A DNA stretch of 64,000 bases from a virus (IMGVR_UViG_3300021467_000082), one strand, 5' to 3'; shown: positions 5,603 to 60,055, numbered from the stretch's first letter. Notes: generated from the sequence alone by a model not told the origin. Numbers and translations are program-made.

Positions 5603-5606
5603 ATTA

Positions 5607-7511: not shown

Positions 7512-8334
7512 AGATTCTACGCCTCATTGCTTTATTTAATCTCTTCTTAAGTTTTCTAACTTTATTACCGACACTAACAGCAGATACACCCATCTCTTTA
7601 GATAATTCTCTTAATGAGGTCTGGTTAACGTAATATTGCCATAATAATTCAAATTCTTCGTCTGTTAATAGATCCATTAACCATTCAATATTCTTACTGG
7701 TATCTAATGAATTGACGACATAATCTTCATAGTCCTCAAATTCAATTAGATTAGCGTTTACATCTGACAATTGTAATGGTAATGGTTCAATCCGCTTTAA
7801 TAAATTATACACAGATACAGATGATCTATTAGCCAACGCCGAGAACTTCTTTGTTGTTTCTTTGATTTTCTTATCTAGTTCAGTACGAACTGTGCGTTTC
7901 TCAGCCAATTCCCATATATCGAAAATATTCAATAGATCAAGCTGTTCCCCAGCTTGACCCAGTAACTCTCTTAACATTATCAGTAATCTAATACCATCCC
8001 TAAGATATTGCGGAATTTTAAGAGAAACTTCTTGCTTAGTTAAAAATTCCCTCATAGCATTCTTTATGTAATAAATAGCAAAGATCTTAAATGATTTATC
8101 TCCAGAACTCCTAGTTTTGTCAAAAGCTCTAACCGCTCTGGCTAAACCTATTAAACCTTCTTGAAATAAATCATCTGGATCTGCACCAAATACAGTATAA
8201 TTCCGAGCTAAAAGGCTTATAATCTGACTAAATTTGTTGTAATTCTCTAAGGCTTCTTCTTCTGTATCACCTAAAAAGAACGGACAAAAATCTTCATCTT
8301 GGCGTATTGGCATCGGTAAACCTCTATACATCAA
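7474..8334 (-). CDS. sigma-70 family RNA polymerase sigma factor
   Basis: Region 2 DDLFQEGLIGLARAVRAFD...YYIKNAMREF; C-terminal region 4 HTH TSLRELSKEMGVSAVSVGNKVRKLKKRL. Confidence 0.8.
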   Translation of the reverse strand: MMYRGLPMPIRQDEDFCPFFLGDTEEEALENYNKFSQIISLLARNYTVFGADPDDLFQEGLIGLARAVRAFDKTRSSGDKSFKIFAIYYIKNAMREFLTKQEVSLKIPQYLRDGIRLLIMLRELLGQAGEQLDLLNIFDIWELAEKRTVRTELDKKIKETTKKFSALANRSSVSVYNLLKRIEPLPLQLSDVNANLIEFEDYEDYVVNSLDTSKNIEWLMDLLTDEEFELLWQYYVNQTSLRELSKEMGVSAVSVGNKVRKLKKRLNKAMRRRIYEDKTNSKKTNT

Positions 8335-9349
8335 TATAAAAATTACTGTTTTGTAATTTAATTAGCCCTCTACCAGCTAAATATTCAATTCCTTTCTCTG
8401 TTATCTCTCTGCCACGCTTTCCACGCACTATTAATCCTCTTTGGATTAAGTACGGCTCCGCAGTCTCGGCTAGAACTTTAGGAGATTCATGCAACATAGT
8501 GGCTAAATTCTCCAGTCCGACAGGGGCGTTTATTTCATATAATGCCTTAAGTAGATTAATATCAGTCTGTGTAAGCCCCGTGTCATCTATACCGGCCAGT
8601 TCAAAAACTAAATTAGCCGCTTCTAATGTAATAGTCTCCTGCTGGGACGCTATTACAAAATCTCTACAACGTTCTAATAAAGATACTAAAATTCTAGGTA
8701 CCCCCCGTCCACGAGACGCTATAACTTCTACTGCGTCTTTTTCAATAGGAATTTCTAGCCGTCTTGCGTGCAATTCTACTATTTTTTTAGACTCTTCCAA
8801 TGTATAAGTACTGAACAGAAACCTTAATTTAAACCGGTCTCTAAACGGCTTTGTCAATTTGCCATCATTTGTAGTTGCTCCAATCAAGGTGAATTCAGGG
8901 CATTTAAAGACCATCTCCTCTTTTACTTTTTTACCAACCGCTTTGATCAATTTTAAATCTTCTCTTGTCAATGGAATATAAAATTCTTCCATTAATATAC
9001 CGAGCATTTCCTGCGCTTGTACGGACAGTCCATGAATCTCATCGATGAATACTATTGTAGGACGAATATATGAAATTTTGTTTCCGTCTTTATCATAACC
9101 CTCTCTATTTAACCGTGCAGCTAACTTTAGTACATCTTTACGTTGCTTAAGAGAATCGCACGCCACGGTTCTAAATTCTGTCCTCAATATTCGTGCTATT
9201 TGTTTTGCAGTGCTCGTCTTCCCGCATCCTGCCGCACCAGCTAACAATATGTGTGGCAGAGCTCTATTTTGTTTTACTGCAGAATGCATAGCTATCGATA
9301 GTTGCTGCCATATTTCGACATTTCCAATTAAATCCATGACACCCTCCAA
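8324..9349 (-). CDS. RuvB-like AAA+ ATPase
   Basis: Walker A GAAGCGKTS, Walker B/sensor VFIDEIHGL, FTLIGATT...PFRDRF, RGVPRILVSLLERCRDFV resembling RuvB sensor-2/winged-helix region. Confidence 0.7.
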   Translation of the reverse strand: MEGVMDLIGNVEIWQQLSIAMHSAVKQNRALPHILLAGAAGCGKTSTAKQIARILRTEFRTVACDSLKQRKDVLKLAARLNREGYDKDGNKISYIRPTIVFIDEIHGLSVQAQEMLGILMEEFYIPLTREDLKLIKAVGKKVKEEMVFKCPEFTLIGATTNDGKLTKPFRDRFKLRFLFSTYTLEESKKIVELHARRLEIPIEKDAVEVIASRGRGVPRILVSLLERCRDFVIASQQETITLEAANLVFELAGIDDTGLTQTDINLLKALYEINAPVGLENLATMLHESPKVLAETAEPYLIQRGLIVRGKRGREITEKGIEYLAGRGLIKLQNSNFYIDV

Positions 9350-9394
9350 TTATAATTTAATCTACATATATTATAACACATAAATCGGAAAGTG

Positions 9395-10204
9395 TCAACA
9401 ACAAAAATATGCGGGGTTAAAATTTTCTTCATCATAGGCAGTAAGATCTGTCGACTGCTTTTTATCATCTTCTTTACTTTTCTCATCATCCTTATCTATT
9501 GGCAAAACAACGGTATATTTATTGGCCCTCAATTTCTCAATCTTTTCATTGAGTGCTTTAATAGCTTTATCCTTATCATATTTTGTTGTTCTCTCGAAAA
9601 CGGTCGTCGTAGTCCACGCGTTATTGATTTCTCCATTTTTAACTATAATTTTCTTACCAGTATTAGTATTAGTGGCAGCACCAGTTGTCGTCTTTTTCTC
9701 TCCTGATTTTGCTGGCCCATCAAGACTAAAATCCAGTGTATTATATTTTTTAAGCGCAATGTAAAGATAGTCATTTTTATGTACTTCAAATTTAGATGTA
9801 TCTATCAAATTGTTCTTTATCGTTTCCCTATTGTCTATAAAAAACTCATAAATTTTGTCCAGTAGCGCAAGAGATGCGTCTTGTTTTAAATTAAATGTGC
9901 GCTTAATAGTTGAATTAACTCCCCAACTATTTGTTCTACGTAATCCTATTGAAATTGTAGTAATATGGAAATATTCAGGATTTAACACAAATATAGCATT
10001 AGTAGCTTTCAATATCAAGTATTTATTAGCCATGCCCTTTAAATATATAGAATAGTTGGTGAAAGGTATAATACCTTTGAAGTATCCAACCAATATTTGT
10101 CTAGTTTTTGCATGGGCGACTTCGACCGCAACATAAACTATATTTTCAAATTCTTTTTCATCCAACATTGTAAGCCTCCACAGTTTTAGCCTTCGCAAAC
10201 ACAA
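9395..10204 (-). CDS. hypothetical protein with a K/D/E-rich C-terminal region
   Basis: ORF track, 269 aa. Confidence 0.5.
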   Translation of the reverse strand: MCLRRLKLWRLTMLDEKEFENIVYVAVEVAHAKTRQILVGYFKGIIPFTNYSIYLKGMANKYLILKATNAIFVLNPEYFHITTISIGLRRTNSWGVNSTIKRTFNLKQDASLALLDKIYEFFIDNRETIKNNLIDTSKFEVHKNDYLYIALKKYNTLDFSLDGPAKSGEKKTTTGAATNTNTGKKIIVKNGEINNAWTTTTVFERTTKYDKDKAIKALNEKIEKLRANKYTVVLPIDKDDEKSKEDDKKQSTDLTAYDEENFNPAYFCC

Positions 10205-10607
10205 TAAGCTTATAATTTCTATTGTAACCTCTACAATAAGCGATTGGTTCCATTCCTAATCTTAAATTATTCCTAATATTTATAGTATTAGTACTACGTA
10301 CCAAACCGTATACATACTTCGTAGGTGCAAAGTCTATACCTTTCTTTAATAATCGCTTTCCAATTCCCTGACTTCTATAATCTGGGTGAACTGCGAGATG
10401 TTTTAATTCCGTCACATACCCGTTCTTTTTTTGTACACCAATTGTACCAATCACTTTATTTCTATCCATTTCTATTATATATGTAATGTCGCTGCTTAAA
10501 ATATAGTGCGGCAATATAGTGTAATAGAATTGATCGCCGATATTTAATAAATGGGCGATCTGAGCAGCAACATCGTTTTTTGTTAAGGATAGAATGAATT
10601 TATTCAT
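10158..10607 (-). CDS. GNAT family N-acetyltransferase
   Basis: Motif A: LAVHPDYRSQGIGKRLLKKGIDFA. Confidence 0.75.
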   Translation of the reverse strand: MNKFILSLTKNDVAAQIAHLLNIGDQFYYTILPHYILSSDITYIIEMDRNKVIGTIGVQKKNGYVTELKHLAVHPDYRSQGIGKRLLKKGIDFAPTKYVYGLVRSTNTINIRNNLRLGMEPIAYCRGYNRNYKLIVFAKAKTVEAYNVG

Positions 10608-11736
10608 TTCTTCTCCTCATTAATAGATCTATTACCGCACGAGCCTCATCGTCGTTTCTCACATTACGTATTACTCTAATGAGACCTTCTTCGCCTTCGT
10701 CTACTGGCGGAAAATTTGCTGCTACTACCTGCGGTGCCTCACCATTGATATTTGCATCTAAGATATTTGCGTTTAAACCCTGATCATCTATCTGGCCACG
10801 CAAATCTACTGCTTGTGCTCCAACGGCTCTTTGTCGCCTATTCAATTCATTTAGTTTCGTATTGAACGCATTTACGTACTTATCAAAAGCCGTTCCTTGC
10901 AGGCCTGGACCGCTGTTTACTTCTATTATATATGGATTATCATTCGTATCTAATGCGCAATCTACAGCTCCAAAATCCAACCCTATTGCTGCAATCGCAT
11001 TAATAGCTGCCGTTTTCAAAGCACTCTTTACATTATTCAGGCTAACACTTCGGAATTTCCATCCTCTGCGATTACTTCTCACTATCCTGTCTGGAATTAT
11101 AACTTCCTTAGAAATTATTTCTAACACCTTATCAATTGTATAATTATCCACGTTCCATTCATTTTTATTGGCGTAATCCAAAACTTTTTCCTTACGCTGT
11201 TCGATCCAATGATTTATATCTGCATTCGGAACTTTCTTTACGGCATAAATAACCTTGCCAAAGGCTACGTGCAGTCTATATTCAGTTTTGACGTCTATAT
11301 ATTCTTGGAAATAATCCGCGCCATCTCCTATTGCATCCTTTACATGTGTCTTCGTCAAACAAACCCAGAGTCCTTTGCCACCTTGATGGAATTTTGTACG
11401 CCCAATTAACGGCAACGATATTACACCTCTGGTAATCTTACCTATAATATCATTTTCTGATCTCTCATATTTTGCAATAGTATTGACCAGATTATTATCT
11501 CGCACCATTATATCCAATGCGTTCAATTTATTTCTGTTTGCTCTAATAGCGTTTGGATGGTTGTATACTGTAATATCAGGATGTATATTAATGTCTCTAT
11601 TCGTTTTGGCACCCCATCCGATAAGCACATCCCCTGGCTGAAGCTCAGGCTTCTCACGCGTTCCATTTATGTTCAAGGTTGTTGCCAACGCTCTACCAGT
11701 TACATCAGTTGCTCCACTATACCATAAATAGATCAT
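10600..11736 (-). CDS. ATP-grasp enzyme (RimK/GshB-like)
   Basis: GRTKFHQGGKGLWVC, QEYIDVKTEYRLHVAFGKVIYAVKK, C-terminal PYIIEVNSGPGLQG. Confidence 0.8.
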   Translation of the reverse strand: MIYLWYSGATDVTGRALATTLNINGTREKPELQPGDVLIGWGAKTNRDINIHPDITVYNHPNAIRANRNKLNALDIMVRDNNLVNTIAKYERSENDIIGKITRGVISLPLIGRTKFHQGGKGLWVCLTKTHVKDAIGDGADYFQEYIDVKTEYRLHVAFGKVIYAVKKVPNADINHWIEQRKEKVLDYANKNEWNVDNYTIDKVLEIISKEVIIPDRIVRSNRRGWKFRSVSLNNVKSALKTAAINAIAAIGLDFGAVDCALDTNDNPYIIEVNSGPGLQGTAFDKYVNAFNTKLNELNRRQRAVGAQAVDLRGQIDDQGLNANILDANINGEAPQVVAANFPPVDEGEEGLIRVIRNVRNDDEARAVIDLLMRRRNE

Positions 11737-13049
11737 AATGTTTCCTCCGCAAATTTTAATTTTCTGTTATATTTCCATGCTGACTTGAAATATGGAGTTA
11801 CCCTCAATTCTTTCTCTTTTAGGCCTCTATTTACCAATTCTATGAATGTATCTATATATTTATTATATTTATTATATGTGGGCAATTCTTTAAGCTTTTG
11901 CAAAATATTTTTAACTAAACTATCATCTAATTCCCCGTGCACCTCTAATATTGGTTTAAGTCCGTCTCGGCCCAGATCTACACCAAATTCTTTACTTACA
12001 GCTAACTCTGGCAATAGATTCATATCATCGCCTAGAAAAGTGTGAGTATCCGTATATATAGGAGTAAATGCTTTAGCAATACCTTTCCTTTCGAGGTACT
12101 TATAATATGCCTCAGCTATTGCTTTAGCTGTGCCCAACACGGCTTTTGCTATTGTTGGATGCTTCAACCAGGCTCCACTAACTACTCTATATTCTAGCCT
12201 GTCTCTGTCGGTACGAAAATCACTTACTCTTCCATAATTAGATTTTCTCCGTCTATAAACTGACTTCTCTGCCCCTTCAATTATCATAAACGGAATAGCC
12301 AAAAGATAATTCAGAATATAATGCAAAACTGTAAACATCGAATATTTGGTATCGGGATCATTAATACCTTCTAATATCAATCTTGGCGTGCCTATGTGAA
12401 TATGACCGCCTATCCCATACACACAGGGCTCAATTGTATCAGGTTCAAAGAAAGGATCGGCATACCATGTGTATTTGTCAATTAACTCGACTTTTTCATC
12501 GTTGGTCAAAATAGTTTTAATATTCTCTATAAATTTGTCCACACTAATCTCTGGCTCTGGCCGTAGTTCGGCTAGTGGACCGTCATGTGCCAGTTTCCCC
12601 ATATGTCCAAGACCTTGAACATGAGAGGCATAAATAAATTGTTTAGAATTCAATAAAACGAATTCTGGATCAGCGCCAATTATTATATCGTCAATTGAAT
12701 CAGCAATCCAAATATTATCTACTTTGTTATCAGCTATATCTCCGCATAGATAATTAAACGTTTCTGAGGTTACAAAGCCAACTCTCAGGTAGTCTTCTTC
12801 TGACATTGTCTTTTTTATTTCTTTTAGGTCGGCGCTATAAGCGTGATATATATTAAGCACTAATCCTCTATTAACTCGTTTTGAAGTATCTCCATCTGGC
12901 CATAACTCAACCACTTTTTCTCTTTCCAGACCAAGATTTTCTCTAGCTTTTCTGCCAATCCTTATTAATTTGCGCTCGCTACGTTTCTCGTTTCTCCTCA
13001 CATTCCTATCCATTTTTTTAGAAACTACTAATATAATTCCGTTTTTCAT
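11733..13049 (-). CDS. amidoligase paralog A (GCS2/YbdK-like carboxylate-amine ligase family)
   Basis: ADPEFVLLN..., AELRPEP, GIGGHIHIGTP; the same motifs recur in 18222-19418 and 34397-35677. Confidence 0.6.
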   Translation of the reverse strand: MKNGIILVVSKKMDRNVRRNEKRSERKLIRIGRKARENLGLEREKVVELWPDGDTSKRVNRGLVLNIYHAYSADLKEIKKTMSEEDYLRVGFVTSETFNYLCGDIADNKVDNIWIADSIDDIIIGADPEFVLLNSKQFIYASHVQGLGHMGKLAHDGPLAELRPEPEISVDKFIENIKTILTNDEKVELIDKYTWYADPFFEPDTIEPCVYGIGGHIHIGTPRLILEGINDPDTKYSMFTVLHYILNYLLAIPFMIIEGAEKSVYRRRKSNYGRVSDFRTDRDRLEYRVVSGAWLKHPTIAKAVLGTAKAIAEAYYKYLERKGIAKAFTPIYTDTHTFLGDDMNLLPELAVSKEFGVDLGRDGLKPILEVHGELDDSLVKNILQKLKELPTYNKYNKYIDTFIELVNRGLKEKELRVTPYFKSAWKYNRKLKFAEETL

Positions 13050-14809
13050 TTTTCTACCTCGACAATTGATTTTATTTTTTCTAACTCCTCAGAATTAAAC
13101 ACCGATCGCAATTTATTAATCGTTTTATCTATATCTTCATGTTTATCATTTTTACCCTGATTAGCTATCAAATTTATTACTAGCTTCTTCAATTCATATA
13201 TATATTGACTACGTTTAGTTGACTTCTCTATCCATTTATAGTCCAGGTCTTCCATCGTTGCAGCCATAAAACCTTCTTTCCAGGCAACCTTATAGACTCT
13301 ATTCGCAATAATGGTAGGACCAAGCGAATCGAGCAAAGCCTCGCTAGTAATATCTATTCGATCCATTAATTCTTCATCACTCAAAAAACCTTTCTTATTT
13401 AATGGTAATTCCTGATACGCTAGTTCTGCTGTTTCTCTCACTTCAACAGGTATAGTATTTATATCGACTTCAACTGTTTCTACATTGTTATTGTCTGTGT
13501 CTTTAGCGTCATCCTTACCATTATTTGTTTCTTTAGCATCATCAACCGTATCTGCTTCTGCCACCGCATAGCTGGTTTTATCTTCTATAGTAACTGGTGG
13601 ACTAGCGACTTCTTCTTCAGAATCCATATCATATCCTAGATTCTCATTAGAATCGACATCAATAATCACCCCATTACTGGCAGTTAGCACCTTATCGCCG
13701 GCTTTTACAACATACTTTTTGGTGATATTATCAAATACTCTACGTGGCACTGCTTTATTTTCTTCCTTTTTAGGCTCTTCTTTGGCATTTTCTTTCTTGT
13801 CAGTTTCAGTTTTATTTTGGGCTGCTGTGTTTCTACTTGCATAACTACTTTGATATCCAGCACTACCGCCTTGATGCCTAGTGCCATAAGAATAGCCAGA
13901 CTTAGTAGTCGTTTGGGTATCAACCCATAATTTGGGATATCTAGCCATCTTCTTACTTTCACTGATATCATCTATTGTCGTATTTTCGTCTACATTAGCA
14001 TCCAAATTAAAGATAACGGCTGTATCGTCTGGCATAGTTTCTAACAACACATTATCTTTCTTGACTAGGCTGGGAAGTAATTCTTTGTCTTGATAATAAT
14101 TCGCTAGCCTTTCATATCGAGGCCATACAGCTGTCCAAAATTTACGTTCTGACATCATCAATAATATACCCAAACTTCTTATCAACACAAACTCTACAGG
14201 CCTTGCATCCCTAAACACCGGTACTTGCTTCAAGTTGTCTGCATTAAACAACACTACTGCAAACTGGCCTTGTAGCCTGGTTACAACTTCTTGAATCATA
14301 TCCAATGTAAATGGTTCAGTGCCTTTTTTCGTAAAATGGTCGAGCAATCTAAATATAGCTTCACTATCGACTTCACCATCTCTCTTGCATTTCAAGCGCT
14401 TAAAAATTTCCTCATGGTTTCTCAAAGTCCCATTATGAATGCCGACCAAATTACCTATTTTAATAGGATGATTATTTACATTTTTATAAGTATTTCCATA
14501 AGTTGCTGCTCTGCAGTGGCCTAAATATACTCTAGCGGGAGTTTCATGTTCTTTCCACACTTTGATAAGCCCGCCATAATATTCGCTTGAATTCCCAAAT
14601 TTATGTATGAAAGAACTTACTTTTTCGCCACGTTTCATACCATAGAAATTGCCATCATTGAATAAAACAGCAGCTCCTACTGCATCTTTGCCCCTTGTCT
14701 CTGTCTCCACTAGCAGCTCAGTAGTAAGAACTCTTAAAACTCTTTGTCTTGTTGCTTCTTCTTTTTTCGTTTTCTTTCCCAGTGTTAAACCAACAACTAT
14801 TCCGCACAT
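13046..14809 (-). CDS. class-II glutamine amidotransferase (Ntn, N-terminal Cys) domain protein with a low-complexity linker and C-terminal extension
   Basis: MCGIVVG..., RGKDAVG, GHCRAATYG...NNHP, GIHNGTLRNHEEI, DSEAIFRLL. Confidence 0.8.
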   Translation of the reverse strand: MCGIVVGLTLGKKTKKEEATRQRVLRVLTTELLVETETRGKDAVGAAVLFNDGNFYGMKRGEKVSSFIHKFGNSSEYYGGLIKVWKEHETPARVYLGHCRAATYGNTYKNVNNHPIKIGNLVGIHNGTLRNHEEIFKRLKCKRDGEVDSEAIFRLLDHFTKKGTEPFTLDMIQEVVTRLQGQFAVVLFNADNLKQVPVFRDARPVEFVLIRSLGILLMMSERKFWTAVWPRYERLANYYQDKELLPSLVKKDNVLLETMPDDTAVIFNLDANVDENTTIDDISESKKMARYPKLWVDTQTTTKSGYSYGTRHQGGSAGYQSSYASRNTAAQNKTETDKKENAKEEPKKEENKAVPRRVFDNITKKYVVKAGDKVLTASNGVIIDVDSNENLGYDMDSEEEVASPPVTIEDKTSYAVAEADTVDDAKETNNGKDDAKDTDNNNVETVEVDINTIPVEVRETAELAYQELPLNKKGFLSDEELMDRIDITSEALLDSLGPTIIANRVYKVAWKEGFMAATMEDLDYKWIEKSTKRSQYIYELKKLVINLIANQGKNDKHEDIDKTINKLRSVFNSEELEKIKSIVEVEK

Positions 14810-15846
14810 GATTGCATACTCCTTTCACCTTTCTTCAGAGTGAAATTCTTTAGAACTGCCCAAATAAATTTCGCTATGTCTATATGGTTCGCGACAAGCA
14901 CATTTTTCTCACCGTCTAACTCCATTAAATCGTCTTTATTGTCAGATCCTCCCAATATATAATTTAATACATAATAATTGCGAGTATAATACGATATATT
15001 ATCAAAAATACTCGATGTTAATTGAATCAAGAGACAATATATATCATCATTGATAAATGTAGGGAAAAAGTCTTCATATTTAAAATATGTTATATTAACT
15101 TTATCCACAGTTGCATAATAGGTATCATGTCCATCTGACAATAAATTTGTATATTTAAACGAACGATTAAATTCCTGAATATACTGTTCTATTATATTAA
15201 GAAGTTTCTCAATATTACTCTTGTTGACATTATTAAATGAGAAATTCACAAATCTATATTTATCCACCAATGCTCTAATATTATAAGGATTGGCTATGTT
15301 TATAGAATGTGCCAACTCCAATCTCTTATAAACATTGCCCGAGTATGTTGGTATTTGTGACAAATCTTCAACATTATTCGTTATGTCATTTTCTAATTTA
15401 ACCGGTTTAATTAAACCATCCACAAGCTCGTCCTTCTCCATGTCTATATTTACTTGTATGTGGTGATCCATAAACATAATGGGTTTATTTATTAGCTTTA
15501 AATCTTCAATCTCTCCTATCGAATGTTTACTACTAATTGTAAGTGGTATCTGTGTTAACTCAAACTTTGGAGTGTTAAATAAAAATACTGGTAAATATAG
15601 ATTGTCCCTATAATCATAATTATTTTTTACAATATTTAGTAAAATTTCTTTTGCTCGTTCAATATTAGCCAAACCTTCCCTATCGTCGGTTTTTACTTTA
15701 GCAAAAGATACGATAAACGGCACCCCTAGCATATCTAGATTCGTTTGATTAAACATCTTCATGCATAGCCGCTTTTTCGCATACGCTAAGAACGAATATT
15801 TAAATGTGATCTCGTCCTCCAATAATTTTATAAATTGTAAATCCAT
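14797..15846 (-). CDS. hypothetical protein
   Basis: ORF track, 349 aa; overlaps neighbours by a few nt (operonic). Confidence 0.5.
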   Translation of the reverse strand: MDLQFIKLLEDEITFKYSFLAYAKKRLCMKMFNQTNLDMLGVPFIVSFAKVKTDDREGLANIERAKEILLNIVKNNYDYRDNLYLPVFLFNTPKFELTQIPLTISSKHSIGEIEDLKLINKPIMFMDHHIQVNIDMEKDELVDGLIKPVKLENDITNNVEDLSQIPTYSGNVYKRLELAHSINIANPYNIRALVDKYRFVNFSFNNVNKSNIEKLLNIIEQYIQEFNRSFKYTNLLSDGHDTYYATVDKVNITYFKYEDFFPTFINDDIYCLLIQLTSSIFDNISYYTRNYYVLNYILGGSDNKDDLMELDGEKNVLVANHIDIAKFIWAVLKNFTLKKGERSMQSCAE

Positions 15847-15854
15847 AGTCTACC

Positions 15855-16628
15855 TCAACCGATAAGATTAGTTTTGAAAATTTTTCCTGTCAACACATCG
15901 ATTCTAACTATTTCGTTTTTTAATGTTATTTCACTACTTCTATTATTAGCAAATCTTCCGTAATTTTCTATTACGCCTAATATTTGAGCAGTCGATGCGA
16001 AAGTTATAACGTTTTCTTTTTTATAAATTCGCATGACTAATGGCGTATAGCTATTATCCCTAAATAGAACAACATATCTAGGATTCTTTCTATAGATAAA
16101 CGCACAGGCCATAGAACCTATGAGACGCGGTACTGTAAATTTAACGCTCTCTATCAGTGATTTACCCATTTTAAGATATTCATCTATCAATCTAAATATA
16201 ATTTCACTGTCCACCTGCCCATTGCGCTTTAACTGTGTATTAGTCTCAAATAAAACATCATCATTAGAAATTACACCATTATGAATACCTATTACATCAG
16301 ATGCTATTATAGGGTGATTGTTAAAATTATTAATAAATGGGCCTTTAGTCTGCGCTCTGGTATGCCCTAATATAGCTTTAGTCCTCGTGCCTATTTGTAT
16401 AGTATCAAATATCTTCTTTACTTCTTCATCTTCCACCAGCTTATTCGAGCGAACATAATTTTTATAAGTATATATTTTATCCTCATTCAAAACTACAATA
16501 CCACTGGCGTCAGATCCTCTAATTGCACATGCTTTAAACATATCTATAAATGAATTCTTCAATTGGTATTCTATAATTCTATTTGGAATTCTCTCTCCAC
16601 AATAGATAATTCCACATAACCCGCACAT
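15855..16628 (-). CDS. class-II glutamine amidotransferase domain protein (short)
   Basis: MCGLCGI..., RGSDASG, GHTRAQTKG...NNHP, GIHNGVISNDD, DSEIIFRLI. Confidence 0.8.
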   Translation of the reverse strand: MCGLCGIIYCGERIPNRIIEYQLKNSFIDMFKACAIRGSDASGIVVLNEDKIYTYKNYVRSNKLVEDEEVKKIFDTIQIGTRTKAILGHTRAQTKGPFINNFNNHPIIASDVIGIHNGVISNDDVLFETNTQLKRNGQVDSEIIFRLIDEYLKMGKSLIESVKFTVPRLIGSMACAFIYRKNPRYVVLFRDNSYTPLVMRIYKKENVITFASTAQILGVIENYGRFANNRSSEITLKNEIVRIDVLTGKIFKTNLIG

Positions 16629-16639
16629 ACTTTGCCTCC

Positions 16640-18259
16640 TTAAATCGAAATAATGGTTCCTAATTTAGAGGACCAGATTAAATTGCCTTCTCTAATTCCA
16701 TCTTCAATATAATTCTTGACGTCATCACTTGTTATCTTTACATCGCTAGTTTCGTTTACAATTTCAGTAACATTTCTTATCCATTCTTCTACATCTGTAC
16801 AATCATCTACTAATCTTAAATCTATAGCCTCATCTATTTTAATTTCCACTTGACTCTCTTTATTTAGTCTCACTTCTAAAGACTTTTCGATATCATCCCA
16901 CTTATCTCCTTCTATACGCCTCAACGCTACTGGCTTGTAAGCCAATTTTTCTAATACATCGTATGCAGGCCCAAGTTTAATTAAGATATTCTTCATTTGA
17001 GCCAACATATCCATAGCCTCTTCTCTAAAATATTCGGCGTGATCTAGCAATTCACTGGTATTACTGAATCTTGGTTCACTATAACTTTTGTGAGCTCCAT
17101 TCAAAATAACGTTTTTCATCTCTTTAGCTTTTGGATCATCCAATACTAATAGGCCATATCTGCTAATTTCTACTGCCTTTATTACAAAGGCGAAATGCAA
17201 ACAGGCCAGTGCCGCGTATATAGATGGACACAGCGTAGCATCTGCTTCCCTAAACTCTATATGAAATATTTCTACATCGCCATCAGGAGAAAAACGGCAA
17301 TTTTTATAATTTACAAAACCGTATTTATTACCGCCAGAATTATTTATAATCTTCTCAGATACTCTATACATCTGGCTTTTAACTGGAGATATATCTAGAA
17401 TGCTAACTCTAAACTTTTCCCATCTTGTCATGTGATTTGGATCTCCTAACGCCATTGTTATCCATGTTAATGCGTTTTGGTACTTCCTAATCAATTGATG
17501 CAAATTTGCCAGTATAATCTCTGGCATAGGCCTTTCCAATTCATTGGTGTTTTCATAGTATGATGCCAAAACATGCATGTGGGCGCCACATCGTTCATTC
17601 ACATATGCACCATGTTTCTTGGCCATATCCAGAATTTTCTTTGACATAGTATAAAATTCCCAATAGTTTACTCTCCTACCTACAGTTATAATCTCTACTC
17701 CACCGTCGTCAACCAAAGACCCATCTTTAGTAATCCGTACAACACCGCTTCCTACTTTACCATATGAACCGCTGGGTTTGAACGCATTTTTAAACTTTTT
17801 CCTCACTTCAGCAGGGGGCAAACTTTTGCGTTGATATTTTTCACATGTTTTACATGCCTTAACAAAATCTTGGCAATTCCAACACCGTGGCGCAAATTCA
17901 TTACAGCCGATTCCTATACATACAAAGCTATAATTTTCACAGTGCTGACAATTCTCAGGCTTACAATCCTCAGATCTGTTACCACACGTTTCTAGCGATG
18001 CAACGTTTCTACAATACGTCGTATTTGCACAGTCACTCCAACATTGCCTATTAGTCATATAATAGCATCCGCACTTTAAATTTCCACCAGCGCATCCATC
18101 TTTACCTTTTGGTAAATTCAACTCGAACTCAATGCCGACTTTCAAGATTCTATACAGTATATCTTTCCAATACCGTATCTCATGGGCATCAAGATGTTTG
18201 TCGATTCTAACATTTTTCTTGTCAGTTATGAATTTCCATTTGTTTCTGTTGTCTCTCAT
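16640..18259 (-). CDS. cysteine-rich protein (about 30 Cys in 110 aa), possibly a divergent amidoligase-like core (GAHMHV)
   Basis: Cys cluster CGCYYMTNRQCWSDC...CKTCEKY; later ERCGAHMHVLAS resembles the HIHIG motif of the paralogs. Confidence 0.4.
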   Translation of the reverse strand: MRDNRNKWKFITDKKNVRIDKHLDAHEIRYWKDILYRILKVGIEFELNLPKGKDGCAGGNLKCGCYYMTNRQCWSDCANTTYCRNVASLETCGNRSEDCKPENCQHCENYSFVCIGIGCNEFAPRCWNCQDFVKACKTCEKYQRKSLPPAEVRKKFKNAFKPSGSYGKVGSGVVRITKDGSLVDDGGVEIITVGRRVNYWEFYTMSKKILDMAKKHGAYVNERCGAHMHVLASYYENTNELERPMPEIILANLHQLIRKYQNALTWITMALGDPNHMTRWEKFRVSILDISPVKSQMYRVSEKIINNSGGNKYGFVNYKNCRFSPDGDVEIFHIEFREADATLCPSIYAALACLHFAFVIKAVEISRYGLLVLDDPKAKEMKNVILNGAHKSYSEPRFSNTSELLDHAEYFREEAMDMLAQMKNILIKLGPAYDVLEKLAYKPVALRRIEGDKWDDIEKSLEVRLNKESQVEIKIDEAIDLRLVDDCTDVEEWIRNVTEIVNETSDVKITSDDVKNYIEDGIREGNLIWSSKLGTIISI

Positions 18260-19418
18260 CGACTAGCCTCCAATTATACTTTAGATTAGCACTAAATTTT
18301 TTCTTACCGGTGACATTCAAAATTGCGTATTTATAATAATTCAAAATAGCTAATTTCTCCTCTTTATATTTCAACATTTTGGTCAAATCATTTACAATAT
18401 TGTTTATCATAGCAACAGCACCGTCTATCTTCTCAGATACTATTGCTTTTTTAACCTCTCCTTTATCTGGAATCGATGGATAAATCATTCTGATATCGTC
18501 ATAGTTGAACTTAAGCTCATTATTAAAATTATCACTGACATACGCTAAACGACTTAACAAATCATTCATCACTATTTTAGATATCGATAAAATTCCATGA
18601 GTATAAATAGGATGTCTTAGTAAATGTCCACCAGGTACTCTATATTCTAATGTCATTTGATCCCACCTATAATCTCCTGGTTTACCATATCTACTAAATC
18701 TTTCTGACCTTCGTACATAATCATCATTACCTTCCGGTAAAATAGCTGATACACCAACATAATAATCTAAAATATCAACTATAAAATCCAACCAATTCAA
18801 TTTTGAAGCACGTAATATTTTCTTTGGCAAACCAAAATGAATATGAAAACCAGCAGACATATTATTACAATGGGATGAACCCAACATAACAATGTCATGT
18901 TTTTTTAATATACCTCTACCAATAATATGGTTATAGACTTTCCTTAATAATACATTTATATGAGCTGTCACTTTTATAGGATTGCTAGACGGCATTGGCC
19001 TCAATTCTGCTAGTCCACAATCATTTCCTATTTCTCCATAATGAGGGAAGAAATGACTAGCTGGAATAGCAAATCCAGTTCTACCATCTACCAAATGAAA
19101 TTCTGGATCACATCCCAACATTACATCGCTAGCAGGAGCGACTGAAATAATTTTATTTCTTCTTAATAAATTATATGTATTACTGCTAACATATGCAACC
19201 TCGCTACCTCTTTCAACATCTTCCTTATACGCAATGCTAACCTGAAGTGCTATAGTATTAATCGCAGTTTTTATATCTAAAAAAAGCCCGGTCATAAGAC
19301 CGAGCTTTTCTCTATATACTTGAGGTATTCTAATTAACCTATCTTCAACTGAACCTAATGGAGATTGTTTTGTATCCATTAAACTCGACGGTCTTATTCT
19401 TAGTTTCATAAGCACCAA
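18222..19418 (-). CDS. amidoligase paralog B
   Basis: GCDPEFHLVD, CGLAELRPMP, GFHIHFGLP. Confidence 0.6.
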   Translation of the reverse strand: MVLMKLRIRPSSLMDTKQSPLGSVEDRLIRIPQVYREKLGLMTGLFLDIKTAINTIALQVSIAYKEDVERGSEVAYVSSNTYNLLRRNKIISVAPASDVMLGCDPEFHLVDGRTGFAIPASHFFPHYGEIGNDCGLAELRPMPSSNPIKVTAHINVLLRKVYNHIIGRGILKKHDIVMLGSSHCNNMSAGFHIHFGLPKKILRASKLNWLDFIVDILDYYVGVSAILPEGNDDYVRRSERFSRYGKPGDYRWDQMTLEYRVPGGHLLRHPIYTHGILSISKIVMNDLLSRLAYVSDNFNNELKFNYDDIRMIYPSIPDKGEVKKAIVSEKIDGAVAMINNIVNDLTKMLKYKEEKLAILNYYKYAILNVTGKKKFSANLKYNWRLVDERQQKQMEIHN

Positions 19419-19435
19419 CTCCTTTAATAAACATT

Positions 19436-21238
19436 TTACGCCTCCTCTATCATTGCTCCCATTTTATTATAAACTTCAACTCTATGCCAAAACTGAGCTC
19501 TCAAAATACCTATGTTCTCATCTACATAATCATATAGGATGGCTTCATCCTTACCCTCAGCCTTTCTTTGTATACGACCAAGAGCTTGTTCTGTAAATGT
19601 CTTATTTTTAAATGGCAACACCAAAAAGCCTCGGTTTAGCTTTGGGACATCAAAACCTTCGCCCAACAAATGAAACGTTGTAACTAGTACTGTTATCTCG
19701 TCATTTTCCAATCTAAGTACTTGTTCTTCATTATAGGTTTTAGAATAATCGCCAGTAGCCAATCCAGTTTTTGGCCATTTATCTTTTATTTTTCTATACA
19801 ACTCTTCACAATAATTCTTTCTTACTGATATTACTAGACAATAATTTCCTTTTCTCGCTTCAGCAATAATATCATCTATAATTCGATTGGTCCTTGCTTC
19901 ACTTTCTGTTATTGCTTGTATAGCGCGGCTATAATTATTGCCTATGTATGTTGCGTAATCCAAAGGGACTTTCTTAATGACTGTCTTATCAACAAGATTC
20001 ACGCCTGCCACTTCCCTTGGGATATGCGCAGTAATATCTCCAATAGAAGCATACATTAGATCTTCTAACCCATCTCTTCTATTTGGAGTTGCGGTCAATC
20101 CATATAAATAATAACTTGAAAAATTAGAAATCACCTCCGTAAATGTTTTACTAGGCGTATGATGACAGTTCGAACTTAATATACCATTAGCAATGAATAA
20201 ATGTTCAGTAGTGGTAAAGTCATATACTGTAGTTGGTTTATTATTTACTATTTTTCCTAAAACTGGCATGCATTTGTAATATCTACCATTATAGTTTATA
20301 TCTATACCATCATTAGTAAATTGTACGTCTACTAATAGTAAATCTCCCTCCTTTATATTACTCATAGTTCCAAATGTAACCGTTTTTATATTGATGTTTT
20401 CCATTGGAACATATGGCAATTTATGAGTTGGAGTGCCCTCTAATATACCAAAGCCACCTTGTAAAATAACCGTTTTATCTGTTTTTCTAGCAAACTTGTT
20501 TGTTACTCGACCGAATGGTGTTATATCACCGTCTTTTATATCTTCTATATTTTTTACTGAACCATCAAGCATCAAAATCTTAGTTCCAGCAACTAAACAT
20601 TCATCAACTATCACTAACCCAAATTTACGGCCTAATTCGGGTAGATATTCTCTGCGCCTAATCAGAGTTTGAACTAACGCAATCGTTATCTTGTCGCCCA
20701 GTTCAACCTCTCCACCGCCAATAAAACCTATCTTGCCGATATTTTCTAAGAACATGTTGATACGATCCATAACCTGATTAGCAAGCCTGTTGGTATGAGT
20801 TATCCACAGCATGGGCTGGAATAAAGAAGCAAATAGGTAAAGAGCCATTACTGTCTTGCCACTTCCTGGCGGCGCTAACAGTATACCATTAGGATGTTTC
20901 AATAAATTCCTTTTTGCTGCCTTTTGGTACAGAAACGGTTTAATTTTACTTTCTACTGTTATCGGCGGTAATAATATTCTGTTGTCTATTATTTCTAAAG
21001 GCACTTGTTTATATATAAGACCCTTTTCGATGACCTGTAAATACCCTCTTGGAATAATTATGCCCCCTGGCGTAGTTTGAGCCATGTAAATAAATTCGGG
21101 TATGTTGCCAACATATCGTCCATATTTAATGGCTTCATCAAATACTGGATTCCTAAATGTTAAAGCAGTAAGAAGCCAGTCTCTGAGCTCTTTGGGAACA
21201 TCTAATAATGTAATATGGTGATCAATTATTAATTTCAT
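19436..21238 (-). CDS. SF2 DNA/RNA helicase (motif I APPGSGKT, II DE-CHH, III GLTATPNRRDG) carrying a mini-intein in motif II
   Basis: Helicase motifs present; VIVDE|C...SSN|CHHTP architecture. Confidence 0.85.
   Translation of the reverse strand: MKLIIDHHITLLDVPKELRDWLLTALTFRNPVFDEAIKYGRYVGNIPEFIYMAQTTPGGIIIPRGYLQVIEKGLIYKQVPLEIIDNRILLPPITVESKIKPFLYQKAAKRNLLKHPNGILLAPPGSGKTVMALYLFASLFQPMLWITHTNRLANQVMDRINMFLENIGKIGFIGGGEVELGDKITIALVQTLIRRREYLPELGRKFGLVIVDECLVAGTKILMLDGSVKNIEDIKDGDITPFGRVTNKFARKTDKTVILQGGFGILEGTPTHKLPYVPMENINIKTVTFGTMSNIKEGDLLLVDVQFTNDGIDINYNGRYYKCMPVLGKIVNNKPTTVYDFTTTEHLFIANGILSSNCHHTPSKTFTEVISNFSSYYLYGLTATPNRRDGLEDLMYASIGDITAHIPREVAGVNLVDKTVIKKVPLDYATYIGNNYSRAIQAITESEARTNRIIDDIIAEARKGNYCLVISVRKNYCEELYRKIKDKWPKTGLATGDYSKTYNEEQVLRLENDEITVLVTTFHLLGEGFDVPKLNRGFLVLPFKNKTFTEQALGRIQRKAEGKDEAILYDYVDENIGILRAQFWHRVEVYNKMGAMIEEA
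20168..20599 (-). mobile_element. mini-intein (144 aa, residues C214-N357) inserted in helicase motif II DECHH; no homing-endonuclease domain seen
   Basis: N-terminal CLVAGTKILMLDG (Cys1 block A), C-terminal FIANGILSSN followed by the +1 Cys; the host motif reconstitutes as VIVDECHH. Confidence 0.8.
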
Positions 21239-21253
21239 AGGTACACCCTGCCA

Positions 21254-21946: not shown

Positions 21947-22400
21947 CTTTAAAAACCTCTTTCACAGTTTTGCCATCAGGCAATTTCCAAAAAGTCCACC
22001 CGCTTCTACGAACACCACTTACAGCTTCAGCGGCAGCAGATAGACTCTCATATCTTTTGTCTCCTATCCAGAATGCTCCATCTTTAACTTGGAGAAAATA
22101 ATTCAATCCCTTGGTAGTTCCATACAAAACTGTGCCTTCAGGAATTTCGGCCTTTCTTTCATTCTTTTTCTGCTCTATCAATTCTGCGATAATCCTATCA
22201 TGTTCTTTGTTCAAATCATCTCTCAATTCTTTTACCATTCTGAATAAATTATCCAAACCACTAGTCAAATGAAATATTCTTTGTTCAAGCTCCGATATTT
22301 TATCAGCTTTAGGCTCCTCTTCCACCTCAACTATTTCTTCTGGCTCAGCATCTAAAGCCACACATTTCAACTTATCTAATTTCATTTCTGGCATGTTCAA
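21912..22400 (-). CDS. hypothetical coiled-coil protein
   Basis: ORF track, 162 aa. Confidence 0.4.
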   Translation of the reverse strand: MNMPEMKLDKLKCVALDAEPEEIVEVEEEPKADKISELEQRIFHLTSGLDNLFRMVKELRDDLNKEHDRIIAELIEQKKNERKAEIPEGTVLYGTTKGLNYFLQVKDGAFWIGDKRYESLSAAAEAVSGVRRSGWTFWKLPDGKTVKEVFKDAITTARNKNE

Positions 22401-34382: not shown

Positions 34383-34396
34383 TGTTCCCTCCTCAA

Positions 34397-60037: not shown

Positions 60038-60055
60038 CTTGTACCTCCTCTGTTT

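Follow-up and report, generated by a model that had tools for sequence, protein, structure and literature searches.

Results

A compact cluster of ligase and amidotransferase genes

The window analysed here, a stretch of 64,000 nucleotides from a virus (IMGVR_UViG_3300021467_000082), comes from an uncultivated giant phage and contains a gene cluster with three carboxylate-amine ligases, two glutamine amidotransferases (GATases), one ATP-grasp ligase and one GNAT. The features of the cluster and of its downstream edge are, in minus-strand order:

18222-19418, minus strand: Lig2a, N-terminal double-psi β-barrel plus phiEco32-like COOH-NH2 ligase (PF14395, Pfam E-value 4.7e-22)
16640-18259, minus strand: CysLig, carboxylate-amine ligase of the GS/GCS2 fold, a divergent sister of Amidoligase_2
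15855-16628, minus strand: GATshort, stand-alone class-II (Ntn) glutamine amidotransferase/amidohydrolase domain (GATase_6 1.4e-13, GATase_7 4.7e-7)
14797-15846, minus strand: Slot protein, 349 aa, fast-evolving and positionally conserved, between the two GATases
13046-14809, minus strand: GATlong, class-II GATase domain, variable linker and C-terminal helical domain (GATase_6 3.8e-14)
11733-13049, minus strand: Lig2b, Cdc48/VAT-N-type double-psi β-barrel (residues about 5-116) plus PF14395 COOH-NH2 ligase
10600-11736, minus strand: RimK-like ATP-grasp ligase, extended by about 80 aa at its C-terminus (PF08443 1.1e-8, PHROG 2599 8e-30)
10158-10607, minus strand: small GNAT N-acetyltransferase (PF00583 9e-13, 48.9 bits against a cut-off of 20.7)
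9395-10168, minus strand: Next ORF, fast-evolving, positionally conserved, of no family (called at 257 aa in the related loci L003 and L004)
9370-9398, minus strand: perfect sigma-70 consensus (TTGACA-17-TATAAT with extended TG), past the Next ORF and ahead of the RuvB-like gene

Positions 10158-19418 hold eight intact, abutting genes, all on the minus strand, with junctions of -38 to +11 bp and a GGAG/GAGG Shine-Dalgarno-like motif upstream of every gene. The first-pass annotation had spoken of nine genes while listing eight: those eight are confirmed at the coordinates it gave, and the ninth and last gene of the unit is probably the Next ORF, which overlaps the GNAT gene by 11 bp. Tight packing and Shine-Dalgarno motifs run through the cluster, and a consensus promoter appears only past this ninth ORF, where the sigma-70 site is the sole 12/12 match within 6000-23000. 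Since promoter-like matches occur overall at chance level (82 vs 78±8), this site is the only noteworthy one, and it marks the downstream boundary of what is a putative single minus-strand transcription unit of about 9395-19409. The cluster is flanked by a helicase on one side and by a RuvB-like ATPase on the other.

The cluster is conserved across related phages

Nine complete, independent loci, on contigs of one clade of 140-330 kb phages, were compared. The seven enzymes occur in identical order in all nine, at protein identities of 34-54%, and the catalytic residues of all seven are kept in every paralog, an arrangement that we judge to be far beyond chance. The paralogs are about 28-29% identical to each other, so the duplications are old and maintained. 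The flanks are always the helicase and RuvB/sigma, and the surroundings are replication and transcription genes, not metabolic ones; this flanking synteny reflects genome-wide conservation in one phage clade and not independent linkage.

Three carboxylate-amine ligases

The amidoligases of the cluster had been described as GCS2/YbdK-like, which is right as to the superfamily but not as to the family: PF14395 (phiEco32-type) is a phage-specific family of the same superfamily, not GCS2/YbdK itself, and the two cluster ligases match it with Pfam E-values of 5e-27 and 5e-22 (Lig2a scores 78.9 bits, the cut-off being 25). The Lig2a ORF is real, but its true start is probably the ATG at 19409 (395 aa) and not, as first drawn, the TTG at 19418; the ortholog in locus L003 is called at 395 aa, and a Shine-Dalgarno motif lies upstream of Lig2a. 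Its D-P-E, E-x-R-P, H-x-H and E-x-R motifs are kept in nine loci. In hhalign, Lig2a matches the Lig2b family at 99.7%, beginning at residue 6, and the barrel is therefore common to both; its best matches, by structure as well as by sequence motif, are of the Cdc48/VAT-N type and not of the RlpA/expansin type. Canonical PF14395 proteins of small phages (about 265-270 aa) lack this barrel, which is thus dispensable for the basic chemistry of the module.

CysLig had been noticed as a Cys-rich protein with an HxHxG-like core. The Cys-richness stands, with 16 Cys in an insert at residues 56-139, about 85 aa long, that probably binds Zn; what had been missed is that the protein is a true third carboxylate-amine ligase of the cluster, linked to Amidoligase_2 and too divergent from that family for Pfam to detect. 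It ends in a winged-helix-like domain.

The GATases, the ATP-grasp and the GNAT

In each of the nine loci, both GATases start with Met-Cys and retain the H-x-R, NNHP, HNG and D-S/T-E motifs. In GATlong, the GATase domain occupies residues 1 to about 295 and is followed by a low-complexity linker and a helical domain of about 140 aa; an alignment of five orthologs shows C2, R100, N113-H114-P115, H125-N126-G127 and D148-S149-E150 to be invariant, the linker hypervariable and the C-terminal domain weakly conserved. Its counterparts in the cultured phages UFV-P2 (486 aa; PMC3890496) and LAh_9 (846 aa) are also long. The nearest NCBIfam domains to GATshort, all sub-threshold, are GlmS-N, PurF and EgtC.

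The ATP-grasp scores 35.4 bits against PF08443 RimK (cut-off 21), over its C-terminal half, and also weakly matches R2K_2 in Pfam. PHROG labels its family 'ribosomal protein S6 glutaminyl transferase', whereas in NCBIfam it reaches only 23.7 of the 331 bits that the S6-ligase equivalog requires and 30.9 of the 143 required by the RimK family model. In tblastn it is 24-29% identical to ATP-grasp genes of phiEco32-like, HP1, CW02, CVT22 and LAh_9 phages. Its E-V-N-x-x-P-G motif is kept in nine loci, as is the acetyl-CoA loop of the GNAT, R/Q-x-x-G-x-G/A (RSQGIG); the nearest NCBIfam model to the latter is RimI, with a score far under the cut-off.

Pfam profile searches thus recovered the families predicted in the first-pass annotation (amidoligase, class-II GATase, ATP-grasp and GNAT), with the N-terminal Cys nucleophile present, the active sites intact and the ORFs undisrupted.

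Two fast-evolving proteins

The Slot protein had been recorded as unknown, and it has indeed no match in Pfam, PHROG, NCBIfam, PADLOC or PDB; it is, however, a member of a fast-diverging family, which led us to reject the idea of a one-off ORFan. Only two word-indexed homologs exist, and the positional homologs are joined by weak similarity and, in L010, L012, L013 and L015, by a family HMM with E-values between 1e-9 and 1e-12. Between loci the protein is about 20-22% identical, where the enzymes reach 34-54%, and the gene is missing in L002 and L011. It may serve as an adaptor, as a specificity factor or as an acceptor. The Next ORF, without a match in Pfam, PADLOC or PDB, is found in all complete loci (family HMM E 5e-20 to 4e-34) at 24-29% identity.

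Related genes elsewhere in the window

Three further genes, of the kinds named in the first-pass annotation, lie outside the cluster:

32726-33457, minus strand: Peptidase_C26/class-I GATase-like gamma-glutamyl hydrolase, one gene from Lig2c (PF07722 4.1e-21)
34397-35677, minus strand: Lig2c, third PF14395 ligase, without N-terminal barrel (PF14395 1.1e-12)
42107-42499, minus strand: GGACT/AIG2-like gamma-glutamyl(amine) cyclotransferase (PF06094 5e-14, 53.3 bits vs 22.8)

Lig2c is part of the same enzyme repertoire as the cluster ligases; by BLAST, its residues 30-285 align to residues 122-318 of Lig2b with 29% identity. PF14395 ligases and Cys-nucleophile amidohydrolases thereby stand at 3:3 in the window. 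The nearest NCBIfam models to the Peptidase_C26 gene, all sub-threshold, are gamma-glutamyl-CDP-amidate hydrolase and PuuD. The window also carries an SLT lytic transglycosylase gene (36481-37200) and has an abundance of genes for tRNA and its repair (two CCA-adding enzymes, Thg1, RtcB and three tRNAs).

Discussion

The first-pass annotation had suspected that this gene association was already on record, and a collinear module is in fact annotated in many cultured phages. Iyer, Abhiman, Burroughs & Aravind (2009, Mol Biosyst 5:1636) defined the phage amidoligase module on computational grounds and, as cited in PMC10580990, PMC11318856 and PMC4431377, predicted that it makes peptide-like adducts; no experimental characterisation of it was found in the literature searched. 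Judged by its sequence, the cluster is an enlarged jumbo-phage variant of this phiEco32/LUZ24-type module, and we are highly confident that it represents an active member of the class. The module of phiEco32, LUZ24, PaP3, HP1, CW02 and LAh_9 and the cluster have in common PF14395, Amidoligase_2 (PF12224), GAT-II, ATP-grasp and AIG2/GGCT components, and the order PF14395, Amidoligase_2-type ligase, GAT-II with a long C-terminal extension, ATP-grasp; the modules annotated in HP1 and LAh_9 are collinear with the cluster, as is that of UFV-P2/LUZ24-like phages (PMC3890496), the fold of the CW02 PF14395 protein matches that of the cluster ligases, and both sets lie in an early or non-structural genome region. 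There are also clear differences: (i) PF14395 and GAT-II are each duplicated in the cluster, with a third PF14395 elsewhere. (ii) Both cluster PF14395 ligases carry the double-psi barrel that the canonical proteins lack. (iii) The Amidoligase_2 counterpart is invisible to Pfam and bears the 16-Cys insert and the winged helix. (iv) A GNAT and two fast-evolving proteins are added. (v) The cyclotransferase, which is the fifth component of the canonical module, is unlinked here, about 23 kb off. (vi) The carriers are uncultivated phages of 140-330 kb, as opposed to cultured phages of 45-100 kb.

We propose that these enzymes, catalytically intact by their motifs, would build an amide-linked adduct derived from glutamate or glutamine in steps that spend ATP. 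By analogy with the chemistry of the superfamily, each ligase would phosphorylate a carboxylate and then couple it to an amine. In GshA, YbdK and PafA the carboxylate used is typically the gamma-carboxylate of Glu. The ATP-grasp may append further residues in the manner of RimK or GshB, the GNAT may cap the free amine, and the unlinked GGACT and Peptidase_C26 could strip gamma-glutamyl groups. The GAT-II domains would partner the PF14395 ligases 1:1, because the two were duplicated together and the third PF14395 adjoins a class-I GATase-like hydrolase; they would either pass glutamine ammonia to the acyl-phosphate (carboxylate amidation, MurT/GatD-like) or deamidate and trim gamma-glutamyl amides (Dop-, EgtC- or PuuD-like). 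The toolkit of ligation, glutamine hydrolysis, acetylation and gamma-glutamyl removal read from the genes at first pass agrees with this domain content and with the reading of the homologous module credited to Iyer et al. (2009). When a Pseudomonas phage was put through directed evolution, its amidoligase and GAT-II genes acquired missense mutations in parallel (PMC11450229), which shows that selection acts on the module during infection.

The acceptor would be macromolecular and most probably a protein of host or phage, modified in the early or middle phase, because the ligases carry recognition-type domains absent from their metabolic homologues (the barrel on both cluster PF14395 ligases, the multi-Cys insert and winged helix on CysLig) and because the unit holds two fast-evolving non-enzymatic proteins, possible adaptors or acceptors. 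A protein acceptor taken by itself is a tentative choice, somewhat short of an even chance; class membership and protein acceptor blended into one overall figure come out slightly on the favourable side. Were it correct, the cluster would be a tagging system resembling pupylation or RimK, and not a part of small-molecule metabolism. As in pupylation (PafA/Dop), a deamidating activity would be coupled with a gamma-glutamyl-to-amine ligase acting on proteins; here, however, deamidation would fall to Ntn (GAT-II) enzymes and not to a ligase paralog, neither a proteasome nor an Mpa context is present, the sequences are about 9-11% identical, and no Pup-like small ORF lies within or beside the cluster. 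The nearest characterised relatives of the ATP-grasp, all sub-threshold (RimK, R2K and a graspetide maturase), act on proteins or peptides; it passes the Pfam threshold of RimK, the S6 poly-glutamate ligase, but differs from RimK in its C-terminal tail, and nothing in this analysis shows S6 to be its target. For the R2K ATP-grasps of phages, host proteins have been predicted as the targets of modification (Burroughs et al. 2015, PMC4431377), and roles in peptide ligation or modification have been given to the module and to these ATP-grasps (PMC4431377, PMC10580990).

Against a protein acceptor stands the likeness to small-molecule pathways, in which the product, made and recycled, would be a gamma-glutamyl peptide or amide in free form (such as a glutathione-like thiol, gamma-glutamyl-polyamine, peptide antibiotic or signal), or in which nitrogen or amino-acid metabolism would be supplemented. 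A GCS-fold ligase with an ATP-grasp and a gamma-glutamyl cyclotransferase mirrors GshA (or YbdK), GshB and GGCT, a ligase with Peptidase_C26 mirrors PuuA/PuuD, and a ligase with GAT-II mirrors EgtA/EgtC; GGACT, Peptidase_C26 and the EgtC-like GAT-II would be the gamma-glutamyl-removing enzymes. These parallels are established pathway knowledge, and genes of the window show sub-threshold similarities to EgtC, PuuD and GlmS-N; NCBIfam gave no equivalog-level match to glutathione, Puu or Egt enzymes, all equivalog scores being far under their cut-offs, and no specific reaction can therefore be transferred by homology. Homologous genes of phage ZRK32 have been read as auxiliary nitrogen-metabolism genes (PMC10945688), on growth-promotion evidence that is indirect, and Iyer et al. 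(2009), as cited in PMC4431377, also weighed peptide-derived metabolites. Unlike those pathways, the cluster has a phage setting, three ligases and two glutaminases per operon, and barrel, multi-Cys and winged-helix additions on three ligases that GshA, YbdK and PuuA do not show; its two fast-evolving proteins suit a host interface better than core metabolism, and its neighbours serve replication and transcription. We therefore consider a metabolite acceptor unlikely, while giving it real weight.

The function usually quoted for phiEco32, which PMC10580990 and PMC11318856 ascribe to Iyer et al. (2009), is amidation or extension of peptidoglycan stem peptides or another surface peptide, blocking superinfection by competitors through changed receptors or wall chemistry. 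The MurT/GatD ligase-glutaminase pair, which amidates peptidoglycan, is an established precedent (PMC3267633), and the SLT gene of the window would fit. However, none of the eight cluster proteins has a signal peptide, a membrane-type annotation or a Mur-ligase domain in Pfam, the barrel is not of the RlpA/expansin type, and no experimental test of the prediction was found in the literature searched; we regard this function as improbable here.

Marginally less probable again is that an amino-acid-derived group is attached or matured on phage DNA bases or tRNA. Known DNA hypermodification clusters have as hallmark partners a 5-hmdU source, a P-loop kinase and an amino-acid:DNA transferase, and these are adjacent in 0/9 loci; moreover, we know of no PF14395, PF12224 or RimK-like family member that acts on nucleic acids. 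The winged helix and probable zinc insert of CysLig, both frequent in nucleic-acid binders, and the abundance of tRNA-related genes speak for such a target, as do GATases among the thymidine-hypermodification machinery (bioRxiv 10.1101/2025.08.14.668559). The position between helicase and RuvB-like ATPase does so too, but it reflects clade-wide synteny, and in cultured phages the neighbours are others, namely NAD-salvage and early genes (PMC3890496).

That the extra ligase and GATase copies are mere leftovers, redundant and with no joint function, as the low identity between paralogs and the dispensability of the Slot gene in 2/9 loci might suggest, is effectively refuted by the intact ORFs, by the catalytic residues that every paralog keeps in nine loci and by an order and content that stay invariant at 34-54% identity.

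Organization of the cluster

The kind of system encoded here is already known from comparative genomics, in the form of the phiEco32/LUZ24-type amidoligase module (Iyer et al. 2009), and the conjugation pathway proposed in the first-pass annotation is essentially the standard interpretation of that module. What is new is the form that it takes: (i) an expanded nine-gene version is conserved in a sizeable clade of uncultivated phages of 140-330 kb; (ii) a barrel is fused to both PF14395 ligases of the cluster; (iii) a predicted third ligase, Amidoligase_2-like and missed by Pfam, combines a winged helix with an insert rich in cysteines; (iv) ligases and amidohydrolases are co-duplicated; and (v) two fast-evolving partners lie inside the operon.

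Genes of the cluster and related genes of the window
9395-10168, minus strand: ninth ORF ('next'), annotated with 257 aa in L003 and L004, two identical contigs; overlaps the GNAT gene by 11 bp
10158-10607, minus strand: GNAT acetyltransferase; Acetyltransf_1 (PF00583), 9e-13, 48.9 bits against a cut-off of 20.7
10600-11736, minus strand: ATP-grasp ligase; RimK ATP-grasp, 1e-8; PHROG 2599, 8e-30
11733-13049, minus strand: Lig2b; PF14395 ('phage phiEco32-like COOH.NH2 ligase type 2'), 5e-27, 95.1 bits against a cut-off of 25
13046-14809, minus strand: GATlong, 587 aa; GATase_6, 4e-14, above cut-off
14797-15846, minus strand: slot protein, 349 aa
15855-16628, minus strand: GATshort, 257 aa; GATase_6, 1e-13, above cut-off
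16640-18259, minus strand: CysLig, the Cys-rich protein
18222-19418, minus strand: Lig2a; PF14395, 5e-22, 78.9 bits against a cut-off of 25
34397-35677, minus strand: Lig2c, third PF14395 copy, outside the cluster; 48.2 bits
42107-42499, minus strand: GGACT; 5e-14; about 23 kb from the cluster

The window, a phage segment of about 35% GC, is AT-rich and has nearly all its genes on the minus strand. The first-pass annotation spoke of nine genes and listed eight, all of which are found where it placed them. Adjacent genes overlap by as much as 38 bp or lie up to 11 bp apart, and a GGAG/GAGG Shine-Dalgarno-like motif precedes every one of the eight. A sigma-70 consensus (TTGACA-17-TATAAT with TG, 9398..9370) lies directly after the next ORF and is the sole perfect one in the 17 kb scanned; promoter-like sites in this region are as numerous as in shuffled sequence, and only this single perfect consensus was retained. 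Since the next ORF overlaps the GNAT gene and is directly followed by this site, the transcription unit is most likely 9395-19409, with Lig2a probably starting at the ATG at 19409, not at the TTG at 19418.

Family assignments and active sites

Two proteins of the cluster had no family match in Pfam. Against NCBIfam the enzymes showed domain-level similarity only, all of it below threshold (GlmS-N, PurF, EgtC, RimK, RimI), so that no reaction can be transferred to them, and a PADLOC search of the cluster gave no defence-system match. Both GATase paralogs have the hallmarks of class-II (Ntn) enzymes, an N-terminal catalytic Cys and the glutamine-binding Arg, Asn-Gly and Asp, and Met-Cys, H-x-R, NNHP, HNG and D-S/T-E are kept in both in 9/9 loci. 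Neither has a fused synthase domain in Pfam, and a partnership with the PF14395 ligases is predicted from co-duplication and adjacency alone. The acetyl-CoA pyrophosphate-binding loop of the GNAT (R/Q-x-x-G-x-G/A; RSQGIG at residues 78-83) is kept in nine loci, as are D-P-E, E-x-R-P, H-x-H and E-x-R in every ligase paralog and E-V-N-x-x-P-G in the ATP-grasp enzyme. The latter passes RimK only at the level of the Pfam domain (residues 232-289) and scores far below the family thresholds (30.9 bits against 143.4 for TIGR00768; 23.7 against 331 for PRK10446); by sequence, it resembles ATP-grasp peptide ligases and is not a RimK equivalog. The enzyme genes thus belong to assignable families with undisrupted active sites, as their profile matches and conserved catalytic residues attest, and on this point the earlier reading holds.

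Relationship to the module of cultured phages

The cluster is collinear with the canonical module and shares with it a stand-alone class-II GATase with a long C-terminal extension (total protein length 587 aa here, 486 in UFV-P2, 846 in LAh_9).

Gene orders in cultured phages
Aeromonas phage LAh_9: GGCT … PF14395, hypothetical, Amidoligase_2, GAT-II (846 aa), 73-aa ORF, ATP-grasp
Pseudoalteromonas phage HP1: GGCT, GAT-II, PF14395, …, Amidoligase_2, ATP-grasp
LUZ24-like phage UFV-P2 (PMC3890496): PF14395, hypothetical, Amidoligase_2, [HNH], GATase_6 (486 aa), 72-aa ORF, ATP-grasp, AIG2

However, the cluster differs from the canonical module in that PF14395 and GAT-II are each duplicated and that a GNAT and two uncharacterised proteins have been added. 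Furthermore, the cyclotransferase gene lies within a few kb of the module in HP1, LAh_9 and UFV-P2, whereas the GGACT gene of the window is some 23 kb away.

Whole-cluster megablast and tblastn with Lig2b and the Cys-rich ligase gave no match in 50,697 GenBank phage records. With the ATP-grasp protein, tblastn retrieved 108 phage records (alignments covering about 75% of the protein at 24-29% identity), the nearest cultured relatives being phiEco32-like Escherichia phages, Pseudoalteromonas HP1, Salinivibrio CW02, Citrobacter CVT22 and the Aeromonas LAh phages. Judged from these searches, the clade is without a cultured or deposited relative, and the ATP-grasp enzyme is the only cluster protein whose similarity reaches cultured phages.

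Conservation across the phage clade

The loci compared include contigs of 329.8 kb (L007), 270 kb (L009) and 141 kb (L008), four MAG contigs (L010-L013) and the 64.6-kb Logan contig L002, a protein of which is also found on a 327-kb contig. Everywhere the order is helicase, Lig2a, CysLig, GATshort, (slot), GATlong, Lig2b, ATP-grasp, GNAT, next, RuvB-like, sigma factor and CCA-adding enzyme, and the seven enzymes occur in identical order in 9/9 complete loci, the window included. The paralogs are only 28-29% identical to each other, indicating that the duplications are old and have been maintained. A scan of viral contigs with Lig2b found a single distant locus (L001), with a GATase and an ATP-grasp gene. 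Seven matches in genome contigs proved to be MAG contigs labelled Muribaculaceae, Patescibacteria, Woesearchaeota, Stahlbacteria and Desulfobacteraceae, from which no host can be inferred; the labels across L010-L016, which also include Deltaproteobacteria, are mutually incompatible and point to mis-binned phage DNA in public MAGs.

In L002, a Cys-rich ORF with an HNH-like motif sits on the opposite strand between Lig2b and the ATP-grasp gene (15759-16598) and looks like a homing-endonuclease-type insertion; an HNH gene also lies within the UFV-P2 module (PMC3890496). L016, whose 35% identity to CysLig makes it the most divergent relative, has an extra Lig2a-like gene of PF14395 type (4519-5643) upstream of the helicase, so ligase copy number varies in the wider clade.

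Additional domains and partners

In a model of Lig2b built with 39 homologs (pLDDT 89.9), the N-terminal domain has the double-psi barrel topology and the psi-loop motif G-x-x-R-h-x-x-x-x-R-x-x-L-G-h that define the Cdc48/VAT-N type. In an independent profile search of PDB sequences, VCP-derived double-psi barrels ranked first, at an E-value of only 0.05. The barrel recurs in Lig2a (99.7% by hhalign, starting at residue 6) and is missing from Lig2c and from the 265-270-aa PF14395 proteins of cultured phages.

Over 540 full-length homologs of CysLig occur in metagenomes, and Pfam recognises no domain in any of them. The first-pass annotation had described a Cys-rich protein with an HxHxG-like core; Cys-rich it is, and its likely identity as a ligase had been missed. 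In an alignment of 32 sequences we found G-x-E-F-E-x-N, DGSL…G-x-E-x-x-T, NER-x-x-H-x-H and F-H-x-E-x-R, hallmarks of the glutamine-synthetase-like carboxylate-amine ligase fold. An insert of about 85 residues, which holds 16 cysteines (15 of them invariant), separates these motifs. An exhaustive profile search yielded 246 representative clusters only, among them a subfamily whose proteins measure about 430 aa and lack the Cys insert. None of 52 subfamily members passes Amidoligase_2 in Pfam; the subfamily profile nonetheless matches the PF12224-positive amidoligase of phage LAh_9 (96.8% probability, E 2e-10), whereas the Cys-rich family itself aligns weakly to single Amidoligase_2 sequences (12-22%). 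The match to LAh_9 covers all catalytic motifs, and on this basis we class CysLig as a predicted third carboxylate-amine ligase, a divergent sister of Amidoligase_2.

The slot protein had only two relatives by word-indexed search. We considered a lineage-specific ORFan insertion and rejected it when positional homologs were found: a gene of 260-386 aa, linked through a chain of weak similarities, fills the same place in L007, L008 and L009, and the family HMM detects it in L010, L012, L013 and L015 (E 1e-9 to 1e-12). L002 and L011 lack it. Identity to the window copy is about 20-22%, against 34-54% for the enzymes of the same genomes, and the next ORF behaves much alike (24-29%). A sub-threshold, SHOCT-like match of one homolog to PF22746 was set aside as trivial. 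When the slot and next proteins, the Cys insert and the C-terminal domain of GATlong were compared with PDB sequences, no significant match emerged.

Proposed mechanism and acceptor

The enzyme repertoire, intact active sites, operon-like packing and long-term co-conservation of the cluster are direct observations. From the chemistry of their superfamilies, the three GS-fold ligases would turn carboxylates into acyl-phosphates and join these to amines, the ATP-grasp enzyme would extend the ligase product and the GNAT would cap an amine. The GAT-II domains could either supply ammonia to a carboxylate that a ligase has activated or act as hydrolases of Gln or gamma-glutamyl amides, and gamma-glutamyl groups would be removed by GGACT and by Peptidase_C26 (32726-33457). 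PF14395 ligases and Cys-nucleophile amidohydrolases are equal in number, two and two in the cluster (in the order Lig-…-GAT / GAT-Lig), with Lig2c one gene away from Peptidase_C26; these matched copy numbers and the joint duplication suggest that the two kinds of enzyme function as pairs.

Tentatively, we favour a macromolecule, most likely a protein, as acceptor. In favour are the Cdc48/VAT-N-type barrel, winged helix and multi-Cys insert gained by ligases of this clade, the presence of Dop and PafA among their best structural matches, the two fast-evolving non-enzymatic proteins of the unit, and the nearest characterised relatives of the ATP-grasp enzyme, which work on proteins or peptides. 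A bolder and rather doubtful extension is that the cluster could serve the phage to tag proteins, as a viral counterpart of pupylation or polyglutamylation used in host takeover or anti-defence. The barrel-bearing ligases would then recognise specific host or phage proteins, with translation or transcription components as candidates, since the ATP-grasp and GNAT pair has affinities to RimK and RimI and the neighbourhood is rich in translation genes. On these targets a short, amidated, N-acetyl-capped gamma-glutamyl peptide would be built, the slot and next proteins acting as host-specific adaptors, and GGACT and Peptidase_C26 as erasers. A search of small ORFs at the cluster found no Pup-like small disordered tag ending in Gln or Glu.

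Among the alternatives, a free gamma-glutamyl metabolite comes first, as possible if somewhat unlikely: the enzymes follow the same logic as the glutathione/gamma-glutamyl cycle, PuuA/PuuD and EgtA/EgtC. Homologous phage genes have also been interpreted, speculatively, as nitrogen-metabolism AMGs (PMC10945688). Next, and improbable in our view, is modification of the envelope or peptidoglycan; PMC4431377, PMC10580990 and PMC11318856 cite Iyer et al. 2009 for predicted peptide ligation/modification and for superinfection-blocking cell-wall modification. Nucleic-acid hypermodification is the least probable of the three: GATases do occur within thymidine-hypermodification clusters, but there alongside a P-loop 5-hmdU kinase and an amino-acid:DNA transferase (AADT / aGPT-Pplase) (bioRxiv 10.1101/2025.08.14.668559), both absent in and beside the cluster at nine loci in a search that covered about 64 kb of a genome of at least 140 kb and all cluster proteins other than the unclassified slot and next.

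The module is carried by Pseudomonas LUZ24-like phages, Kuraviruses, marine Zobellviridae and Aeromonas phages, and takes up at least 10% of some small genomes. Seventeen years after the prediction, we found in the literature searched no experimental characterisation or test of the module, its product or its target, the only functional hint coming from directed evolution of a Pseudomonas phage, during which its amidoligase and GAT-II genes gained missense mutations in parallel (PMC11450229). Our results overturn nothing and sharpen this open question. The jumbo-phage clade has the most elaborate form of the module and adds three kinds of information beyond the small-phage versions: the joint duplication, which argues for working pairs; the domains acquired by the ligases, which argue for a macromolecular acceptor; and the two rapidly evolving operon partners, natural candidates for a host interface. 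Protein tagging, if true, would constitute a new class of viral post-translational modification, and the small-molecule reading a widespread phage-made metabolite; either answer would bring annotation to thousands of phage genes.

Other features of the window

The SF2 helicase upstream of the cluster (19436-21238, minus strand) has an insertion of about 135 aa exactly within motif II (VIVDE|C…SSN|CHH), missing from four orthologs; Cys at its start and Asn then Cys at its end are the mark of a mini-intein lodged in the DECH box. A possible second small module of overlapping or abutting genes (30991-35677, minus strand) consists of a NUDIX gene (30991-31539), a 152-aa uncharacterised protein, an HD phosphohydrolase (31980-32747), Peptidase_C26/GATase-I, a 310-aa protein (33450-34382) and Lig2c.

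A tRNA and RNA-repair set (306-1364, 6141-7511, 35649-36395, 37438-38829 and 38843-40177) comprises tRNA-Thr, -Pro and -Trp, an RtcB RNA ligase, two paralogous CCA-adding enzymes (PolyA_pol + HD) and a Thg1-like tRNA-His guanylyltransferase, and suggests heavy investment against host tRNA-targeting defences. At 23369-24871 (minus strand) lies a 500-aa protein with DUF2828 and DUF7788, a pair that may correspond to Ro/TROVE-like RNA-binding proteins. Such proteins are mentioned beside RNA-repair systems in a review of jumbo phages (PMC7824862).

A single 1092-aa ORF (24896-28174, minus strand), kept in the relatives L002 and L003, has weak matches to RNA polymerase Rpb2 domain 6 (β) and Rpb1 domain 2 (β'), which point to a putative fused minimal multisubunit-type RNA polymerase; a sigma-70-like factor is also phage-encoded (7474-8334, minus strand). 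Two paralogs 10 kb apart (40197-40919 and 50951-51670, both minus strand) each combine an N-terminal SLOG domain (YAcAr/DprA-like) with a C-terminal DUF4326. In the last 6 kb (58001-64000) GC rises from about 30-35% to 43-45%, and the ORFs there have no Pfam match except one weak SSB-like hit (57927-58652); this stretch could be a module of other origin or of another expression class. Finally, the overlapping ORFs 2457-2999 and 2920-3531 (minus strand), the first of which matches only the C-terminal part of an ATP-dependent DNA/RNA ligase adenylation domain, may together be one ligase gene that a frameshift or programmed recoding has divided.
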